DNA of 44,597 nucleotides, taken from a virus. Taxonomy: Duplodnaviria; Caudoviricetes. Shown piece by piece: positions 334-11,951 of this stretch (the first letter of the stretch is position 1; each line of letters starts with the position of its first letter). The notes below the pieces were generated by a model, which saw only the letters and a program-made list of their open reading frames with translations, made no database searches and was not told the origin of the DNA. Made by a program: the position numbers and the translations under genes. The stretch covers positions 1 to 44,597 of the IMG/VR virus record IMGVR_UViG_3300010398_000015; one strand, written 5' to 3'.

Positions 334-3300
334 AACAGACCTTTCTCTCCCATCTTCCAGGCCAGCTGCTGCACGGCCAGGATCAAATGGAACAAAATTT
401 CGTGACTGTTGAAATCCAGAATCTCGATCTCTTCCTTGTCGCTATCGCGCAGCCTGCCGCGATGCGAGGGGCAGCAGCCGGGCAGCACGGCCTTCAGGTC
501 TTCAACAACGACCGAGACCACGCGCTGGCCCTGCGGGGTGTTATGCAGGCCGTTGTATTCGCCCTCCACCGGCTTGATCTGACTGATGATGGACAGGCCG
601 CCTTCGAGCGGCTTGACGTTCTGCTTGAGTCTCACATCGGAGGAGATCGTCCACGTGTTAGTGGAAAGTTTGGCGGCGTCGTCGGTCGAGACTTGCAACT
701 GATGAGAAGGACTGGTGGTTCCTATACCTACGCTGCCGCCAAGCGGATTGAGACAGAGCGGATAAGCGTTGCCGCTCGCCGTACAGTGACGCATCTGTAA
801 GTGACCGAAGCCGTTGCCGTCGGTAAAGAGCGCCAATTCAGTTACCCCGGCGGTGCCGAACACTGCCGTGGCGGCGCTCTGCGAAGTCAGGCTAGGGCTG
901 CTGTTGGCCGCGCAGAGAGCCGTGATTCCCCCATACGGCGTGCCGTTGATGGCTTGGTTCCCAATGCCGACCTTCCCGCCGTAAGCCGAAGTGGCGTTGC
1001 CCCAAACGAGAGGAACGTCCGCGCCGCCTTGCCGATAGCCGAATACGCAGCCCGCCGTGCCGCCAGCGAAGTACATCGAGCCCACGTAAGCGCCGTAGTC
1101 CTGGTTGTAATCGACGCCAATGGAAATCCTCCCGGCAGGAACGGTCGCAGAGATGCCGCCGATACCCTGAACGAACAAGCGAGTGTTGGTTGGCAGCGTG
1201 CCTCCCGGATTAGTGGTAGATACTGTCAACAGCGCGGTCGGCGCTGTGTTCCCGATGCCCACGTTGCCATTGGCCAAAACGGTAAGCATCGAATTAAACG
1301 AAGCTGGATTTATATTGGGGGCGCTGTGAAGGACAGAGTATGAGCCGACAGTCGCCGCACTAATCGTTTGGACAACCCAGGCATCGCGGGTGCTGTCGCG
1401 TAGATGCCAATTCGTCCCGTCATTCCAAGCATTCGCGCATAGCTGCACATATCCATTTCCATTAGCCGCCAAATTAATAACGCAAAAGTCCAACGTGCCG
1501 GGACCAGTGGTGGGGCCAATGGTGACATTGGTCTGAATGCCTTGACCCATGTTCACGCCGCTCGATACGTGGAGGAGAGATGCGGGCGACGTGGTTCCGA
1601 TGCCCACGTTGCCCGCGCTCGACACTGTTAAACGCGCCACACGACTGTTACCAGCAGCGCCGGGGGTTTTCGTAGCCACGGACCAGTTAGCTGAAAAGTT
1701 GCCATCTTCAGACGATTGCAAACTAACAAGCACAGATTGCGACATAGTGCCATTAGAGTAGAATATGGCTCCGCCCGCTCCCGCGCCGCCGCCCTGATTG
1801 TCAAGAGTCAGGGCTGGAGCAAGGGAGCCTGCCGAATCCCGCCGCCCATATATAAGCGATTGCGGAGTGCCGCCAATGCCAAGCAAATTGCTGGTATTAT
1901 CCCAAAAAAGATTAGCGGAAGCCCCAAACGCGCCAGCGTTATTAAACTGAATCTGTCCCGTTGAGCCAGCAGGAGAGCCGGGAGCGGACCCATTAATGGT
2001 ATTAATGTTTTGCAGATTAATCAGCGTTCCACCACCAGTGACAGCAAACGGAGATCCGCCCAACCGATAGGATTGCGGAAGAGCAATATTAATGTCTCCC
2101 GATACGTCTAACTTATAATTCGGACCCGAAGTTCCGATCCCTACATTACCGGACGTATCCATCCGAAATCTCTCTACTAGATTCTGAATCCAGACAAAAG
2201 GCTGAGGCCCTAATTGTATGAGGGCACAGTTGGGAACAGTGGCATTCGTACTACCTTGCATCTTCAGATAAACACCATTACCCGCATCGTTTTGCAGATA
2301 AATTTGAGCTTGAAATGTTGGTCTGCTATCGTAAATACGAATCCCACCAAGTGGAACGGATGGAGTACCCTCGATATTTAGGCCATACGTAGATGGAGTC
2401 GTCGCATTGCCGCAACCGATTCCTCCACATCCAGTAAGCGTATTACCAGCGGCAACGATAGTTTGAGTCCAAGGAGTTTGCGGCTGACCCGGAGCGGCCC
2501 CGTTGATGTTGCTAATATTTTGTAGATTGATTAACGTTCCCCCGCCACTGACGGCAAATGGGGAACCACCAATCCTATAAGACCGTCCTAAATTAATGTT
2601 GATGTCACCAGCCACATCCAACGCATAGTTCGGACCCGTAGTATTAATGCCAACATTTCCATTAGACCCAGATACAACCAAAAACGGAGCATTGTTAATC
2701 TTCAACTGTAGTTGAGCCGGAGAGAAAGCCGCGCCAATCTGAAATAACTGAGTGGGAGTTTGAAATGCAATATCCGTGGTTACAACTCCGGCTCCTATAT
2801 TATTGAGATAAAGTACGGTATTCCCTCCCGCTCCAGTAAGACTTGCGGCATAAAGGGAGGCATTCGTCTGTACAACAACAATTTCGGAAGCATTATTGAG
2901 AGCAAAGGAGGCCGCATCGATGTTACTGGCCCAAGGAGTCTGAACCATCGAGGCAATAGGATTCCCATTAATGTTGGCTATATTGATGAGATTGACATTG
3001 GAACTCGGTCCCTGAACAGCAAAGGGAAAGCCACCTAATCTATAAGACTGGGGAAGTGCAATGTCTATATCACCAACTACGTCTAAAGCATAGTTGGGGC
3101 TAACCGTTTTGATTCCTAATCGATTGTTTACATTGTCCCAAAATAGATTAGCACTACCACCAAAAGACGTGCCCGCACTGTTAAACTGTACATATCCCGC
3201 AGAACCTCCTGGGGATGTACCTCCTCCAGTCCCAGATGGCACGGCCCAAGTAGAATCTTCGCGAAGAAATCTCGTAGCACCAACAGTTGCACCAGGATCT

Positions 3301-4202
3301 GGTACAGCACCTAAAGAATGTCCAGCACCAGAGGGGCCAAAGGGAACACTAACTATAGTGCGATTAGCTGAAAGATCTCCACCACCAGATAAACCAGCAC
3401 CCGTGGCAATAATTCTCGTTGCCGGAACAGGGGCGGCCCCGTTGATGTTACCTACATTAATCAGATTGACGGCCCCACCAGTACCCTGAACCGCAAATGG
3501 AATTCCACCTAAACGATATGAACTTGGAAGGGAAATATCAATATCCCCAAAAACATCAAGCGCGTAGTTTGGGCTACTGGTATTGATTCCTAAACGACGG
3601 TTGGTGTAATCCCAAACGAAATACTGAGATGCGGAGAAATTACCACCCTGATTAAATTGAACTTGACCGTCCGACCCGGAAGCATGGGCGCTGATGGAGA
3701 TACTCTGACCATCAGGACTTTCTGGGGTTATCGTTATGTTGTTCCCACCAACTAAATTGACATCTCCAGCTATTCCATTAATTGAACCAACCCCTGCTCC
3801 AATCGTGCGCGGCCCGATCCCAGGATTAAGGAATGAGTTACGAGTTGCTTCCGCATAACCGACATCCAGAACACTAGTCTCCGAGAAACCAGCCTTATAG
3901 AACAAATCCTCAGAGTTTCCAATGCTTGGCTCAGATCCAGCCTTCTTGAATATCAGGTAATAAGACGCACCCAGGATGAGCGACCAATTTATGTTAATAG
4001 CATGGTCGCCATCCAGGACTTGTGGACCAAAAGCCGACACCCCCATTGCAGACGTAGCAACAGCGGTGTTATCGCTGGTGTACGCCACGACAATATAGAA
4101 GTACTGAACCGTCGTAACTCCCGGAACAGATTCTCCGATATATCTTACGGAGGTCGGGATTACTACGGCGGACGTACCATTGCCTATGGGGTAACGGCTC
4201 AT
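330..4202 (-). CDS. Long tail fibre / receptor-binding protein with C-terminal Peptidase_S74-type intramolecular chaperone
   Basis: 1290 aa, rich in G/N/S/T, many GNVGIGT-type repeats, four PNYALDV.GDI.I.L..SYRLGG.PFAV modules, C-terminal SDVRLKQNV autocleavage motif. Confidence 0.9.
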   Translation of the reverse strand: MSRYPIGNGTSAVVIPTSVRYIGESVPGVTTVQYFYIVVAYTSDNTAVATSAMGVSAFGPQVLDGDHAININWSLILGASYYLIFKKAGSEPSIGNSEDLFYKAGFSETSVLDVGYAEATRNSFLNPGIGPRTIGAGVGSINGIAGDVNLVGGNNITITPESPDGQSISISAHASGSDGQVQFNQGGNFSASQYFVWDYTNRRLGINTSSPNYALDVFGDIDISLPSSYRLGGIPFAVQGTGGAVNLINVGNINGAAPVPATRIIATGAGLSGGGDLSANRTIVSVPFGPSGAGHSLGAVPDPGATVGATRFLREDSTWAVPSGTGGGTSPGGSAGYVQFNSAGTSFGGSANLFWDNVNNRLGIKTVSPNYALDVVGDIDIALPQSYRLGGFPFAVQGPSSNVNLINIANINGNPIASMVQTPWASNIDAASFALNNASEIVVVQTNASLYAASLTGAGGNTVLYLNNIGAGVVTTDIAFQTPTQLFQIGAAFSPAQLQLKINNAPFLVVSGSNGNVGINTTGPNYALDVAGDININLGRSYRIGGSPFAVSGGGTLINLQNISNINGAAPGQPQTPWTQTIVAAGNTLTGCGGIGCGNATTPSTYGLNIEGTPSVPLGGIRIYDSRPTFQAQIYLQNDAGNGVYLKMQGSTNATVPNCALIQLGPQPFVWIQNLVERFRMDTSGNVGIGTSGPNYKLDVSGDINIALPQSYRLGGSPFAVTGGGTLINLQNINTINGSAPGSPAGSTGQIQFNNAGAFGASANLFWDNTSNLLGIGGTPQSLIYGRRDSAGSLAPALTLDNQGGGAGAGGAIFYSNGTMSQSVLVSLQSSEDGNFSANWSVATKTPGAAGNSRVARLTVSSAGNVGIGTTSPASLLHVSSGVNMGQGIQTNVTIGPTTGPGTLDFCVINLAANGNGYVQLCANAWNDGTNWHLRDSTRDAWVVQTISAATVGSYSVLHSAPNINPASFNSMLTVLANGNVGIGNTAPTALLTVSTTNPGGTLPTNTRLFVQGIGGISATVPAGRISIGVDYNQDYGAYVGSMYFAGGTAGCVFGYRQGGADVPLVWGNATSAYGGKVGIGNQAINGTPYGGITALCAANSSPSLTSQSAATAVFGTAGVTELALFTDGNGFGHLQMRHCTASGNAYPLCLNPLGGSVGIGTTSPSHQLQVSTDDAAKLSTNTWTISSDVRLKQNVKPLEGGLSIISQIKPVEGEYNGLHNTPQGQRVVSVVVEDLKAVLPGCCPSHRGRLRDSDKEEIEILDFNSHEILFHLILAVQQLAWKMGEKGLL

Positions 4203-4213
4203 GGCGTGAAGAC

Positions 4214-4546
4214 TTAACTCCTAGTTGTTGCCGGGAAACCAATATCTTTCACGCCCAACTCAGACGTGAAGGCCGCCCAAGGATCTCCCGTCGTAACGGG
4301 CGCCGACCCTGCCGCGCGGAATAACTGATAAGCAATTGCACCAACTTGCGGGGACCATTGGACGTTCACGATATCTATCCCATTAAGACCCGCGTTGGCA
4401 ACTGGTCCCGTACTGTTGGTCACGCCGGTTCCGACTGTCCCACCAGGGAATATCGGAATCAGAGTATAGAACCAGTTGGTCATTGTAACACCAGGTATGT
4501 AGGTTCCTTGATACCTAGCTTGTAGCGAGAAAACCGGTTGAGTCAT
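4214..4546 (-). CDS. Stand-alone paralogue of the tail fibre N-terminal (beta-sandwich-like) domain
   Basis: Aligns by eye with fibre aa ~15-122 (RYQGTYIPGVT/RYIGESVPGVT; NVQWS..GAIAYQLFRAAGSAP/NINWS..GASYYLIFKKAGSEP). Confidence 0.75.
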   Translation of the reverse strand: MTQPVFSLQARYQGTYIPGVTMTNWFYTLIPIFPGGTVGTGVTNSTGPVANAGLNGIDIVNVQWSPQVGAIAYQLFRAAGSAPVTTGDPWAAFTSELGVKDIGFPATTRS

Positions 4547-4547
4547 A

Positions 4548-5744
4548 TTATCCTCCTAAACTTGCCAATTTCGTTTCGAGTTCAGCAATTCGTGCTTCGA
4601 GTATGCTGATGTTAGCGGGATTGATTTGGACGGGGACACCGTTAATGCGGTAGGTGCCGGTAATGTTTAGATCACCGACAACATCTAACGCGTATGCAGG
4701 AGCTAGGTTGTTGACACCGATGAAACCACTCGCTGTGGGCATAATGTTATCGATGTTTAAAATCACATGTCCAAGACCGGAGGGGACCGCTTGAGGATTA
4801 GTGCGGGCCAAGCTAGCAGCGGATACAAACTGGACTCCAGCAACGTAGTATCCAGCAGAGGTGTCTACCGGACCATTGACGTATAGAGCGTAGGCCGTTC
4901 CTCCAATAGGGGGTGGAGCATTGGAGTTAATAATCACCATCCCACCCTCGTTGTAATAGATCCCGTTGCCTAATCCCTGATAAACATACCAGTCGCCTAG
5001 TTGTTTACCACCCCTGGAGAAATATCCAGTATTGTTGACATCAATGGTCTGGACACCAGACAACGAGTATCCCGAGCCGTTTATATTCTGGGTCCAAGGA
5101 GTCTGTGCGCCTCCTGGTCCTGTGGGACCTTGGGGACCTGTAGCGCCTGTAGGACCCTGTGGTCCTGTAGCTCCTGTAGCTCCCGTAGTTCCAGGGGGAC
5201 CAGGAGATCCAGTAGGTCCAGTAGAACCGGGGGGTCCCTGAATCCCTGCTGGTCCCGCTGGACCCTGAACTTTACCAACATTTACCCAACCAGATACAGT
5301 CCAGACCCAGAGATTTCCAGTATCATTAGTGATGTAACCATCACCAATGTTTGCCGATGGTGGTAGAGCCGAGGCCGTAGCTACAGATCCTACAATAGTT
5401 GTAGCATGACCTGGAGGACCTACGGCTCCTGTGGAACCTTGAGGACCTGGAGGTCCTTGTGCGCCTGTTGCACCAGTGGCACCAGTGGCTCCGGTTGCAC
5501 CGGGAGGTCCTGGGGGACCTTGAGTCCCACCACTACCGCTACCACCAAAAGGAGTTCCATTAAGCCGATAAGTAAAACCAGCGGCATTACCTGGATCACT
5601 GATGTTGATATCTCCCGAGATATCCAACGCCCAATCAGGGACCTTGCCAGTTCCTAGCCAACGAAAGCCGTACTTATCCGGGACCGTAGGAAGAGTTGCC
5701 GCGGCGAATGGGGTTGCAACATTTCGACGTATTGTAGAGATCAT
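4548..5744 (-). CDS. Collagen-like (Gly-X-Y) fibre protein
   Basis: Two GPP/GAT/GPQ triplet tracts, ALDI/VxGDxNI modules shared with the long fibre, C-terminal coiled coil. Confidence 0.85.
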
Positions 5745-6165: not shown

Positions 6166-6460
6166 TCACCCGATGTGACTTCTCAAGCTCTCTCCTAATT
6201 CGAGGCCAGCTTGATAGCGCGTGTCCAACCGGCTTCATTCCGGGAGGACCTTGCATTCCATTTTCAGGATGCATTCTATTTCTGATGTCCGTCTCGATCT
6301 TATCTGAACGTTCACGCTCTCGCTCCACGATATCTTTAAAGAGGGTAACGGTAGTTTCAGCAGCCAGACATCGGTCACGCCAGCCGTCGCAGACGGCTGT
6401 ATGCACGGCAAGCTCACGTTTAGTGGTCCCTCCGAGCATGACGATGAGCCAATCAAACAT
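6110..6460 (-). CDS. Hypothetical protein
   Basis: Overlaps the terL stop; coiled-coil-like middle. Confidence 0.65.
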   Translation of the reverse strand: MFDWLIVMLGGTTKRELAVHTAVCDGWRDRCLAAETTVTLFKDIVERERERSDKIETDIRNRMHPENGMQGPPGMKPVGHALSSWPRIRRELEKSHRVNDNAEVSREEIEKTIRQG

Positions 6461-8090
6461 GATGCCTCATCCTCACCGGCATATCTGGTGGACGTTTCCG
6501 TTCCAACTTTTCCATCCCACGATAATAAGCGTTCCAATTTCCTGTGTCCTGTAACTTCTGAATTAGGTCGTTTTCTCTCCTACGAGACTCTCCTTGATCC
6601 TTCAAGGTTCCCAGGTATCGATCAACAGCCATGTTGAGATACCTAACAGTATCGTAAGGATCATCCCCATTGAACTCTCGAACGTCCTCAGCGGGTTTAT
6701 CCGATACGTTAGATTTCTTTTCATAAATGCAGAGGGGAATAGTGCGGCGGAGTTCCCGACAATCTGGGAATATCTGGAGCCTTGGGAGGACTTGAAGTTC
6801 CCTTCTATCTTGAAAGGAACTCGCGTAGGTTGTATAAGCCAAGGTTCCATCAACGCGCAGGATACGCATCGCGACCTCATGGTCGTACTCCGCCGTATTG
6901 GACGCGGCTTTTGCGGGAGCCTCTTTCCAACGAAGATATTCCTGAAGGAGCAACTTACCAGCTATTCTGTCATTATCCGCCTGACGAGCTATCAGACCAG
7001 AATACTTGGTGAATTGCTCTTGCTGAGTCATTTCGTCCCCTCGTTGTTGCCAGGCACTTCGACAGAGAACGATATCCGTAAACTTCTCACCTATCGAAAG
7101 GTTTCCCACCTCAGTCGCCCATGTTGATGTCTTAGCCTCCTTCTTTGTGTATTCCCTGTAAACGTATAGTCTATCATCCGGACTAAGCGCGCCCCAAAGC
7201 GCACAGGTCATTGCACTATAGCCCCAGTCGATCGCGAGGAATCGGAGCCACCAATCAGGGACCGTAAATGGCTGGCAGATATGACACGCATTATCGGGCT
7301 CACCGTCACTAGGCATCTCACGGTAATCAGAAAATACCTGCCCTTCAAATGAATCCCAAGATCCATATCTTTTCGCCGCGCGCTCAGCTTCGGGAAGAGA
7401 TTCCAGTCTGTTAACGTATTGCGGGTCGTTCGACATGAGATACGGATTATCCTCAGCGAAAGACTGGATAAATATTCTTTTGAGATTGGTTTTTCGATCG
7501 ACGATAATTGTATTCTTTGGAGCGGGGGTGATAAACAAGTCCCTAACCCACGCATGTCCAATATTTCCCGGATTTGTAGCAGATCGAACGATGGCGGGCA
7601 ATCTACTAGAAGAAGAACGGCACCGGGTTCGAGAGAGATAAACGTATTGTCCCTGAGTGAAGGAGGTAAGCTCGTCAAAAGCCATGTAATTGTATTCGGC
7701 AGTATCATATTTTCTGACGTCACTTTCGTACTCAACATGGCCGAACTGAATTAACGCGCCGGAGGGAAATTGCCAACGTTTCTTTTCCTCGTTGTATTTC
7801 CCTCCAGCTAGGGAGTACCAATCACGGCTTCGGACGATAATCTCACTCTCAAGCTCAGGAAATGTTCTACGGAAGATAATAGCTTTGAATCGAGGCTCTT
7901 GATAAAACCCTCTTATGATGGGAAGCATTAAGAGGAGTTCGGACTTCCCTCCACCGGCGGCACCACCGTAAAGAGCCTCGAAGATTGTATCAGGCAGAGA
8001 CGCAAATTGTTCCTGCCTCTTGTGCGGCTTCCATTCGCGGTTCGTCAAAGAGGAACGATCGACGTTTTGTTTATCGAACGACGGCCTCAT
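6453..8090 (-). CDS. terL: Terminase large subunit
   Basis: Walker A GGAAGGGKS, Walker B MAFDELT, coupling motif ATNPG, RNase H-like nuclease AIDWG and DDPYDTVRY. Confidence 0.95.
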   Translation of the reverse strand: MRPSFDKQNVDRSSLTNREWKPHKRQEQFASLPDTIFEALYGGAAGGGKSELLLMLPIIRGFYQEPRFKAIIFRRTFPELESEIIVRSRDWYSLAGGKYNEEKKRWQFPSGALIQFGHVEYESDVRKYDTAEYNYMAFDELTSFTQGQYVYLSRTRCRSSSSRLPAIVRSATNPGNIGHAWVRDLFITPAPKNTIIVDRKTNLKRIFIQSFAEDNPYLMSNDPQYVNRLESLPEAERAAKRYGSWDSFEGQVFSDYREMPSDGEPDNACHICQPFTVPDWWLRFLAIDWGYSAMTCALWGALSPDDRLYVYREYTKKEAKTSTWATEVGNLSIGEKFTDIVLCRSAWQQRGDEMTQQEQFTKYSGLIARQADNDRIAGKLLLQEYLRWKEAPAKAASNTAEYDHEVAMRILRVDGTLAYTTYASSFQDRRELQVLPRLQIFPDCRELRRTIPLCIYEKKSNVSDKPAEDVREFNGDDPYDTVRYLNMAVDRYLGTLKDQGESRRRENDLIQKLQDTGNWNAYYRGMEKLERKRPPDMPVRMRHHV

Positions 8091-8517: not shown

Positions 8518-9174
8518 TTATATCTCAACTACCTCGAAGGACTTCTCACTCCGGATCTCAGGAGTATAAACAATCAGGTTGATATTACCTTGCCGATCCT
8601 TGTCGGGCATGGTTTTCTCCACGACACGAGACATGTTCGCCGCGATGTTTGCCAAATCGGTCGCCTTACAGCCGGATAATTTATCATCCGTTAAAAGACC
8701 AAGCGAGGCCATTAACCGGTCGAGAGCTTTATTACGAGCGATCTCAATCGCATGGGCAACTTCTGATTCATCACGGAGACCCAGTCCGGCATGTATTTGG
8801 GCTACCGCTTGCCGGGATATCCCGTGCTCTTGCGCGATAGTTTCTTGTTTGCGCCCACTAATCTTGGCGTCGATGGCGATTTCAGTTCGCTCCTCGACAG
8901 AAAGCCACGGTCCGCGTCTACCCGTGCGCGGAATGCTCCGGTGCTCGACTTGTTCGCAGTTGATAGCTCCGGCTGGTAATGACTGGATACTTCCGGATTC
9001 TTTCTCTTGTTGCCCGCTCTCCGCCGCTTCGGTTTCGATGCGGGCTTCCCTACTATGTCCCGTGGCATTTATAGACCTCTCCTGTTCTACTCGACGAGCA
9101 GCTAAGTTAAACCGATTAGCCAGGTTGTCTGGGCTAGACAATCGCTGCCGAGCCTGATCCTCAGTAATAAACAT
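8518..9174 (-). CDS. Putative terminase small subunit (HTH protein)
   Basis: HTH-like QETIAQEHGISRQAVAQI, helical C-terminal half, first gene of the packaging operon. Confidence 0.6.
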   Translation of the reverse strand: MFITEDQARQRLSSPDNLANRFNLAARRVEQERSINATGHSREARIETEAAESGQQEKESGSIQSLPAGAINCEQVEHRSIPRTGRRGPWLSVEERTEIAIDAKISGRKQETIAQEHGISRQAVAQIHAGLGLRDESEVAHAIEIARNKALDRLMASLGLLTDDKLSGCKATDLANIAANMSRVVEKTMPDKDRQGNINLIVYTPEIRSEKSFEVVEI

Positions 9175-9256
9175 ATAGAATTCCTAGGGGAAAGCTTTGA
9201 GATAGGCACGATCCAAGGGACCCATTAGATTTGAATACAACTTTCCCCTAAGCCCA

Positions 9257-9285
9257 AGTGTACCCCTACCCCCCTACAGAGTCAA
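9257..9285 (-). promoter_or_regulatory. Sigma70-type promoter for the late arm
   Basis: TTGACT (9285-9280), 17 nt spacer, TACACT (9262-9257) on the minus strand, ~80 nt upstream of the terS ATG. Confidence 0.7.
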
Positions 9286-9468
9286 GGAGAAAAATCGCCC
9301 TGTTTTCAACAACTTCCGAAAAAGGGGAGTAACGCTTCATCGCGTGAAGAGTTATTTCATATTTTAAAAATTGTAGGTGGAAGCTCTCCTTCTGACGAAC
9401 GAAAACGCGAGGAGGATCGACTTCGCCGCCGGAGTCCCTGGTCCCCAACGTCCTGGAGGACACCCACC

Positions 9469-9624
9469 TACGAAGGATTTCGTACGAAGGTCTTCGTACT
9501 TACTTTACCGCTAACGTTATCGCTAACGTTACCGCTAAAGGTCTACTAGTTACTTAGTACTTAGTAGGTCGTAGAGCTTTACCGCTAAAGTTACTCTAAC
9601 GTTATCGGTAAAGTTAGCGGTAAC
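9469..9624. repeat. Array of short palindromic repeats
   Basis: TACGAA-N4-TTCGTA x2; seven 11-12 bp TTA-N3/4-TAA units in two blocks; TACTTAG x2 in between. Confidence 0.85.
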
Positions 9625-9780
9625 TGTGTAGAATTTTCTCCCCTATGTAAAAATTGCGCGCACAAATTACACGCTTTGCGTTATAAAGTCCTTTGAGGAC
9701 CTGTAAGTCCTTTATTATCATAGAGGATAGTTTGGACTGCCCCTTGCTATATATAGAGTGTAGTTCGAAGGACAAGGTGG

Positions 9781-10310
9781 CGCCTCCCGCGCGCGTTCTG
9801 CGCGTGACTTTTCTAGGGAGACGGAAGCCAAGATGGAACGCACAATTTTAATGGCCGATATTGAAGGCTAGGGTCACGGACGCTAGGTCTCCGTCAACTC
9901 AACCCGACCAGCTACGTTCGATGCGTAGTGTACGGTCAGGACTCCAACTTGAGTGAGACACGGACTGAATCTCCTCCCCCATGTTTCACGATTATACGAC
10001 AGGTGAAAGTATACGTCATTCGCTTGACCTGGGTACTCATCATACCGGAAGTCTCTGTGCCACCGTATGCGCCGTATAGTCTAGGGTGATCCGACTAGCA
10101 GATTGACACTTTGCGGAGTAGAACCAAATCCTTCCCTATTCTGTTTGTTTGTTATCAAGCGTACGTGATTCGTCGCTACAGATAGGCGTCGTCCGACTTA
10201 ATGCGGATATAGGTAATGCCGTCTCGTGTCGAGTGTAGGAGAATAAGTGGAATCTCATACAGGTGAGGACTCAACGAAGTCCGTTATCAGCCTAAGATAT
10301 GAGAGGACTC
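9781..10310 (+). ncRNA. Candidate large structured non-coding RNA (family not recognised)
   Basis: No ORF of 60 aa or more on either strand; many nested helices; a possible long-range helix GAGACGG/CCGTCTC. Strand inferred from G-U pairs and context. Confidence 0.4.
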
Positions 10311-10364
10311 TATTTGGCCTTACATTAAGATTTCATTTATGAGATTTTAATGAAAGGTCAAATA
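10311..10364 (+). promoter_or_regulatory. Long hairpin (~24 bp) covering the RBS of the first early gene; RNase III-site-like
   Basis: TATTTGGCCTT-A-CATTAAGATTTCA / TGAGATTTTAATG-A-AAGGTCAAATA; apart from one A-A mismatch, the non-Watson-Crick pairs are G-U on this strand. Confidence 0.6.
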
Positions 10365-10368
10365 AACT

Positions 10369-10578
10369 ATGAATACTATCAGTTTTCGCTTCTTTCCTTC
10401 CGGACATCCGACGTTCGACGTCGTGATTGACGGAACTTCTTGGAAACAAGAAGACGACCAAGTGTACATTTACGATGAAAAAAATCACGTAATCGCTCAC
10501 ATTTGGTTGGACAATGGTTACGTTGAGGTCATGGAATTCGGAAAGGAGAAACTTAAATTAACGGCTAATGCTGCCTAA
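10369..10578 (+). CDS. Early hypothetical protein
   Basis: 69 aa ORF with a GAAAGG RBS. Confidence 0.7.
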   Translation: MNTISFRFFPSGHPTFDVVIDGTSWKQEDDQVYIYDEKNHVIAHIWLDNGYVEVMEFGKEKLKLTANAA

Positions 10579-10584
10579 CAAATC

Positions 10585-10624
10585 TTCAGGGGGCTTGCAA
10601 AATTCTTTTTTGTAAGCCCCTGAA
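10585..10624 (+). other. Intergenic inverted repeat (terminator or processing hairpin)
   Basis: TTCAGGGGGCTTGCAAAA / TTTTGTAAGCCCCTGAA with one bulge. Confidence 0.55.
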
Positions 10625-10652
10625 TCTAAACCAATTATACCCAAGAAAAGTG

Positions 10653-10682
10653 TTGACTCGCGTTTTTTACGCCGGTTATACT
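10653..10682 (+). promoter_or_regulatory. Sigma70-type early promoter
   Basis: TTGACT, 18 nt spacer, TATACT, upstream of a strong AAAGGAG RBS. Confidence 0.65.
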
Positions 10683-10730: not shown

Positions 10731-11066
10731 ATGCAAACTGTACAAGGAACCGTTGAAGTTTCCGTGGGATCGCGCAAGTTCTCACGTCCCTTTGAGAAGG
10801 TCGTTTTCCAGAGTCGTGAAGACGTGCTGGAAGCCCTTCAGACCGATAAGGGATTGGTTGAATTGCTCGACCATGTTAACTACTCGATCGATCTGACCGA
10901 ACGTGCAAAGGTTCGTCAGGCAATCCTCGCCAACGAGGCTTCGTCGGCTGCGAGCGAAGAGAAGTCCATCAAGGACTTGATGAAGGTTCGCGCTGCGGCT
11001 GGCAAGCCCGTCACCGAAGACCAAGCTCGCAAGATCATCGAGGTCATGAAGACCTTAGAGGTCTGA
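10731..11066 (+). CDS. Early hypothetical protein
   Basis: AAAAGGAG RBS; followed by a strong hairpin. Confidence 0.85.
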   Translation: MQTVQGTVEVSVGSRKFSRPFEKVVFQSREDVLEALQTDKGLVELLDHVNYSIDLTERAKVRQAILANEASSAASEEKSIKDLMKVRAAAGKPVTEDQARKIIEVMKTLEV

Positions 11067-11073
11067 ATCCGCA

Positions 11074-11182
11074 GGGGGGACCTTTCTCGAGAGGTTCCCC
11101 CTCCTTCATTAAGTCTTCATACACTGAAGATTTAATGAAGGTAGGAAAGCAAGCTACCCTGGGGGAGAGTACGAAACCTCCC
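11074..11182 (+). other. Cluster of four consecutive hairpins, including a second CATTAAG/TTAATG stem
   Basis: Stems at 11074-11101 (12 bp), 11103-11141 (17 bp), 11140-11158 and 11163-11182. Confidence 0.6.
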
Positions 11183-11924: not shown

Positions 11925-11951
11925 TATATACATATATATATATATATATAT
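11925..11951. repeat. (TA)n dinucleotide tract
   Basis: TATATACATATATATATATATATATAT. Confidence 0.95.

Follow-up and report, generated by a model that had tools for sequence, protein, structure and literature searches.

Bacterial and phage RNAs of at least 500 nt with a conserved fold are rare, and the known ones, as far as PMC5737381 describes them, are either ribozymes or unexplained. ROOL RNA averages 581 nt and many GOLLD RNAs exceed 800 nt (PMC5737381, PMC12286853). By size and phage context, these two classes are the closest described counterparts of a candidate RNA in a 44,597-nt stretch of viral DNA (IMG/VR record IMGVR_UViG_3300010398_000015; hereafter the window): they too are large, multi-junction RNAs of phages and prophages whose function is little known, and at ~550 nt the candidate is near ROOL in size (PMC5737381, PMC12286853). 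It is nevertheless not a member of either class. At every threshold applied, Rfam searches with the window and its relatives gave no match. ROOL and GOLLD are often neighbors of tRNAs, whereas ARAGORN found no tRNA gene in the window. Here a sigma-54-type promoter precedes the RNA, which would come first in the early arm, and the phage encodes its own DNA polymerase and gave no integrase match.

Structured RNAs also stand at the 5′ end of long mobile-element operons, as in the cis-acting leaders HK022 put, Bacillus EAR and pLS20 cATT. The first two are far shorter than ~550 nt. The third differs in being a stem-loop/terminator switch (PMC13401043). A sigma-54 promoter has been described in a phage, as P015 of Pseudomonas phage YuA, and phage ncRNAs derived from 5′ UTRs have precedent, at about 90–210 nt against about 550 nt here (PMC10914365).

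The conserved regions I and V (P4) of RNase P RNA, searched as patterns, are absent from the window and its relatives, and no Rfam match was obtained; the same holds for group I (R and S elements in order) and group II (domain 5) introns, likewise searched by patterns. The relatives also seemed to resemble RNase P RNA (GUAACGCC, AC..AA.....CUUA), a reading that was abandoned because CUUA changes along with the closing helix and no P4 pattern is present. The tRNA-like ends and tag ORF of tmRNA were not found in the window, nor were a hammerhead pattern or an Rfam model match to small self-cleaving ribozymes. A first-pass annotation of this DNA had been unable to assign the tract to a class, and the Rfam search bears it out, returning no family match and only sub-threshold chance matches of miRNA and snoRNA type.

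As a phage record, the window is nearly complete. On a family scan of its 58 proteins, the minus strand encodes tail, terminase and capsid proteins, and the plus strand a helicase, an exonuclease, an annealing protein, a methyltransferase, a DNA polymerase and a primase; neither an RNA polymerase nor an integrase was matched among them. The large terminase gene occupies 6453–8090. The late and early arms diverge across 9175–10368, at 1194 nt by far the largest gap in a gene chain in which 50 of 59 gaps are 50 nt or shorter, and the gene-free stretch of a compact genome to which the first-pass annotation had drawn attention lies inside it. The second-largest gap contains a (TA)n run (11925–11951), also present in L002, L019, L020, L021, L023 and L024, which is a possible replication origin. 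No isolated phage is close: the best large-terminase match among GenBank phages reaches 32.5%, and the region gave no blastn match to them. Among prokaryote genomes none yielded a small-terminase alignment, and the large terminase led to one 2.5 kb contig. The DNA is present in four sequencing runs, all of soil DNA labelled soil metagenome, and an assembly artefact is ruled out by identical sequence in contigs of two of them, both possibly the source of this DNA. No RNA run was listed with the sequence, which says nothing about expression either way.

Upstream of the small-terminase-like gene, relatives have GGGACCC between C-rich and G-rich flanks, matched in the window by GGTCCC; this motif is likely a packaging-start or genome-end signal. 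In L022 and L025, ~400 nt of mostly ORF-free sequence around GGGACCC, ~100–700 nt upstream of the small-terminase match, is 82% identical. The slot of the window's 12-nt repeats holds other palindromic repeats in L018 and L158, with L018 sharing TACGAAG.TCTTCGTA.

The first-pass annotation had overlooked two elements, a 31-codon ORF overlapping its last structural domain (10247–10342) and the promoter at 9732–9748. Since the promoter lies there, the likely 5′ end of the RNA shifts to ~9759. Both the sigma-54-type site and the IHF-like element before it are presumed assignments, made by comparison with consensus sequences. A promoter pattern with a TATA extension, drawn from the window site and its relatives, has a single match in the window and none in 100 shuffles. 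Sites of this type occupy the equivalent slot of L038, L158, L040, L044 and L123/L179, with looser matches in L018 and L017, and in the relatives bearing the site the IHF-like element is 10–30 nt upstream. Scanning viral contigs with the pattern returned 52 loci, in which family genes accompany only the window's own copy; the sigma-54-like pattern also occurs in 51 unrelated viral loci (L059–L110), all without family genes.

Searches with terminases and early proteins yielded overlapping sets of 12, 17, 6, 22, 79 and 4 related loci. Most of these phages have small genes after a sigma-70-type promoter behind GGGACCC, and the sigma-54-type site recurs in a subset, eight distinct phages of the family. 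Leader length was taken as the distance from this site to the nearest following gene that has at least 35 codons and a Shine-Dalgarno sequence. Four of the eight have long leaders (621 nt in the window, 606 in L038, 553 in L158 and 528 in L018, or 660 from a second site), three have short ones (37 nt in L040, 43 in L017 and 106 in L123, which is the same as L179), and in L044 the sequence ends before the first gene. Leader lengths are bimodal behind one promoter type; the tract is thus a module that may or may not stand between the promoter and the first gene. That of the window lies directly behind the early-arm sigma-54-type promoter and spans the 520–620 nt to the first gene by which members are defined. 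A tree built from 17 small-terminase rows separates the phages with a tract from L040 and L044 but does not resolve their place among other tract-less phages. The elements of this region are listed in Table 1.

Table 1. Elements around the leader tract of the window, and positions of the family RNA in three related phages.
Feature	Position	Strand	Remarks
Small-terminase-like gene opening the packaging/late arm	8518–9174	minus	Named by position only, no family match; synteny anchor
C-rich/GGTCCC/G-rich motif	9424–9460	plus	GGGACCC in relatives
Short 12-nt repeats, direct and inverted	9497–9626		Between GGTCCC motif and promoter
Conserved IHF-like element	9704–9720		Upstream of promoter; before promoter in L040, L044, L158 and L123; inverted in L038
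Sigma-54-type promoter, GG-N10-GC (TTGG...TTGCT)	9732–9748	plus	Predicted transcription start ~9759
Candidate large RNA, ~550 nt	9759–10310	plus	Likely distant relative of the L038/L158/L018 family
Stable 5′ hairpin, GUUCU loop	9788–9806	plus	By eye, GUUCU in L038 and GUUCA in L158
GAAAGTA	10005–10011	plus	257 nt from promoter (268 in L038, 269 in L158, in conserved block); post hoc, weak
Core three-way junction	10135–10213	plus	10135–39/10209–13 (5 bp); 10143–52/10178–87; GUC-loop-GAC 10188–97; UUAAU 10198–202
Possible 31-codon leader ORF, AGGAG + GTG	10247–10342	plus	Stop at tip of end hairpin; no homologue
Terminal hairpin GGACU-CAACGA-AGUCC	10267–10282	plus	Variant (CUC-AACG-AAG) of relatives' UUC-UACG-GAA hairpin
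24-bp A/U-rich hairpin, predicted RNase III site	10311–10364	plus	z −8.8; 3′ arm holds ribosome-binding site of first gene
First early gene, 69 aa	10369–10578	plus	Relatives searched, none found
Family RNA, L038	3003–3540	minus	Gene-free leader slot
Family RNA, L158	1493–2030	minus	Gene-free leader slot
Family RNA, L018	285–830	minus	Gene-free leader slot

The early-arm leader slot of three relatives (L038, L158 and L018) is occupied by a covarying RNA family of ~540 nt that has no Rfam match. The alignment of the L158 and L038 RNAs extends over 463 nt (E 8e-29), and its invariant blocks are separated by variable helices; L018 was found by the profile of these two (E 2e-9) and by their covariance model R1 (E 7e-11). 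All three RNAs fold better than shuffles (z −2.37, −3.14 and −3.47). Their core runs in the order 5-bp helix, 2-nt linker, helix, 3-bp G..C hairpin, UUAAU plus 6–7 nt, closing strand, and its two helices (14 pairs) are paired in all three family rows. In a four-row alignment that includes the window row, both-sided changes affect 8 of the 14 core pairs, which none of 500 shuffles equals, and 89% of the cells are paired against 31–53% when slid; the basis of this covariation is three family sequences and a structure derived from those same sequences, which differs from an R-scape test.

Models R1 and R2 gave no match at E ≤1 over 93 further loci (899 kb), a 5′ motif scan of viral contigs returned two loci, one already known and one due to chance, and a terminal-loop scan of 28 of the 64 parts of the viral contigs returned 120 loci, whose only family members were again L158 and L018. 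The L158 RNA has no blastn match in GenBank phages, and no description of the family was found in the literature searched. PMC10690425 reports candidate RNAs from IMG/VR that are 29–151 nt long; family terms are absent from the portion of its supplements that was searched, and fragments of the family may be listed there. For structure work, the L038, L158 and L018 RNAs are better candidates than the window.

The nearest relative of the window, L002/L015 (large terminase 84%), has neither the family core nor a clear sigma-54 site. At 4150–4720 on the minus strand (also represented by L002, L004 and L016), L015 contains another tract that is poor in ORFs and folds strongly (z −3.1), in the equivalent slot. 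It resembles neither the window nor the L038 family by any test, and only TATCAAGCGTA is common to it and the window. Because this tract is folded yet lacks the core and a clear sigma-54 site, the slot apparently accommodates more than one RNA. The early arm of L015 also carries a tRNA gene (2478–2563, minus strand); the window has none.

The window tract itself lacks the folding signal of the three relatives. Every string on which the first-pass annotation had built its proposal of a structured RNA is where it had been placed, including the repeated word ACAGGTGA at 9999 and 10259, and the tract is indeed non-repetitive. As evidence for an RNA, however, the proposed helices fail, their number and energy being at the level of chance: 12 local Watson-Crick helices of at least 5 bp compare with 11.4 ± 3.1 in shuffles, and 4 of at least 7 bp with 7.0 ± 2.6. 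The folding z-score against shuffles that had been suggested as a check is +0.43 on the plus strand, where 60 of 100 shuffles do as well, and +0.30 on the minus strand; a further determination gave +0.66, and no 100-nt plus-strand segment starting between 9700 and 10225 is down to z −2. In the ensemble of 9759–10306 the suggested long-range pair GAGACGG/CCGTCTC has a probability of 0.00 and TCTCATA/TATGAGA of 0.01; the hairpin at 9788–9806 (0.92) and the GGACT/AGTCC helix (about 1.0) are stable.

Tests of overall likeness to the family were also negative. The covariance models R1, R2 and R3, built from two or three sequences, have no match in the window tract. Global alignment to the two-sequence profile gave z 1.8 and 1.4 for the window against 7.3 for the L018 control, and to the three-sequence profile 0.0–0.5. 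Only one of 12 conserved blocks was found at p 0.02, out of place, and 90 of 500 shuffles reached the ordered chain. No close homologue of the tract was found for direct covariation.

Local likeness is centred on the core, which in the window reads CCUAU, UCU, a 10-bp helix, GUC-GUCC-GAC, UUAAUGCGGAU and AUAGG at 10135–10213. A core descriptor with the strict ranges of the three members misses this site, where the linker is 3 rather than 2 nt and the loop 4 rather than 6–11 nt. Widened slightly after the window had been seen (linker 2–3, loop 3–12), it has a single match on the two strands of the window, at 10135–10213, and none in 20,000 shuffles; over 3.26 Mb of fetched loci, duplicates included, it returned the three family members only, with no false match. 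An earlier, looser descriptor in another register matched 5 and 0 of 2000 shuffles. As in the family, 11 nt separate GAC from the closing strand; G-U makes up three of the six pairs of the first helix, and the ensemble probabilities of the three helices are 0.48, 0.72–0.75 and, for the small hairpin B, 0.02. None of the five base pairs of the closing helix is that of the relatives, and yet the strands pair at equal spacing, a pairing that the descriptor requires.

Two elements outside the core, the terminal loop and GAAAGTA, fall in register in an unguided MAFFT alignment. The terminal-loop variant lies 58 nt past the core, and the widened pattern that recognizes it has a background of 41 matches in 2.76 Mb, or 0.002 per 150 nt. 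Fainter signs of likeness are the GUUCU-loop hairpin near the 5′ end and GAAAGTA with its similar distance from the promoter. The terminal ACG loop might also pair at long range with a core CGU, over 5, 5 and 7 bp in the three relatives and 4–5 bp in the window; as several equally long chance partners exist in the window and L038, this is no more than a lead.

The window tract agrees with the family in slot, in promoter type and in length, and probably also in the topology of the core junction, with UUAAU, and in a terminal ACG-loop hairpin of variant sequence; it differs in the altered linker and loops and in having no detectable overall sequence likeness or folding signal. Judged from sequence, and with local tests that are post hoc, the tract is probably akin to the L038/L158/L018 RNAs; we call it a likely distant relative and not a member because the covariance models and profile of the family fail to detect it. 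That it contains a functional folded RNA is a proposition toward which we lean with less assurance. The idea of an early ncRNA of no recognized class has accordingly gained support from the promoter, the RNA of the relatives and the probable common core junction, and has lost that of the helices first offered for it.

The same data could describe a tract that has decayed from a family RNA, or a spacer without structure, with the RNA functional in the relatives only. Chance-level helix counts, the missing folding signal and the failure of every model fit such a reading; the closing helix, which keeps its pairing (as the descriptor requires) and spacing though all five pairs differ, the preserved length behind the promoter and the expectation that so compact a genome (50 of 59 gaps ≤50 nt) would shed 550 idle bases argue against it, and we regard it as rather unlikely. 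We give far less credence to a tract that works as DNA, in the form of entry, replication-origin or protein-binding sites near a genome end. It does adjoin the packaging-type motif, the short repeats and the IHF-like site, and the word ATCAAGCG, which we take to resemble an IHF half-site, occurs in four tracts, although at unrelated positions; but the tract is not repetitive, and the both-sided pair changes and G-U pairs of the relatives point to single-stranded RNA.

The RNase III-like hairpin with which the first-pass annotation had closed the region proved real (24 bp, z −8.8) and is alone in standing out by its folding. L038 has a long hairpin in the equivalent place. In L158 and L018 the RNA continues into the Shine-Dalgarno sequence of the first gene, and there is no separate hairpin for release. 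The ORF that overlaps the hairpin raises the alternative that the region encodes small peptides, notably a 31-aa leader peptide at 10247–10342 the translation of which would unfold the end hairpin and turn the first gene on, so that the RNA would end near 10240. An AGGAG followed by GTG, 31 codons and a stop at the hairpin tip favor such a peptide. However, the ORF has no tblastn match, the relatives have only ORFs of 7–19 codons behind such sites, the variant terminal hairpin lies inside the ORF and 9759–10240 would be left unexplained; we consider this very improbable.

A more serious contender is a cis-acting leader of the early operon, in which an RNA of the same family would alter RNA polymerase for terminator read-through in the manner of put or EAR, or serve attenuation or gating of first-gene translation. 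The tract is a 5′ leader by position, the conserved 3′ end of the L158 and L018 RNAs includes the Shine-Dalgarno sequence of the first gene, strong hairpins lie downstream (10585–10625 and 11073–11141), the hairpin at 9788–9806 is also terminator-like because a weak U run follows it, and the conjugation operon of plasmid pLS20 provides a precedent with a 456-nt attenuator leader (PMC13401043). On the other hand, relatives with the same promoter do without the tract, a sigma-70-type promoter at 10653–10682 would restart transcription past the first hairpin, and several conserved domains over 540 nt seem beyond the needs of an attenuator. On balance we find a cis-acting role doubtful. Further observations downstream are that the sigma-70-type promoter is conserved, that a gene for a 111-aa protein without known family (10731–11066) is kept across the phage family, and that the element after it, at 11073–11141, comprises two adjacent perfect-looking hairpins (z −7.5), a terminator and a second RNase III-like stem.

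The explanation that we favor, tentatively, is an early RNA of ~550 nt that is released by the hairpin and acts in trans. Host sigma-54 RNA polymerase would likely start at ~9759 and make the tract the first transcript of the early arm. The RNA is predicted to fold around the conserved three-way junction; RNase III would cut the hairpin at 10311–10364, freeing an RNA of 550–600 nt and, at the same time, the ribosome-binding site of the gene at 10369. Within minutes of the start of infection, the freed RNA would most likely engage a host factor as decoy or scaffold. Transcription, RNase III cutting and action in trans are steps that we infer; the last is suggested by the size of the RNA, the conserved unpaired bases of the relatives, the absence of the tract in kin with the same promoter and the slot itself. 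Phage T7 keeps its anti-restriction gene in a comparable first-expressed slot. That the tract represents a new class of large, intricately folded, first-expressed, sigma-54-controlled phage RNA with an anti-defence job, as decoy or ribozyme, is a bolder idea and an unlikely one; if true, a slot with at least two unrelated folds, those of the L038 family and the L015 tract, would amount to a fast-evolving RNA arsenal.

The family adds an RNA without Rfam match for which ends are predicted and a promoter type is assigned. Kin that have this promoter and lack the RNA provide a natural control, and the role of the RNA is therefore open to direct testing. If phages make a large RNA before anything else in infection, this would extend the known routes by which they take over or disarm their hosts.
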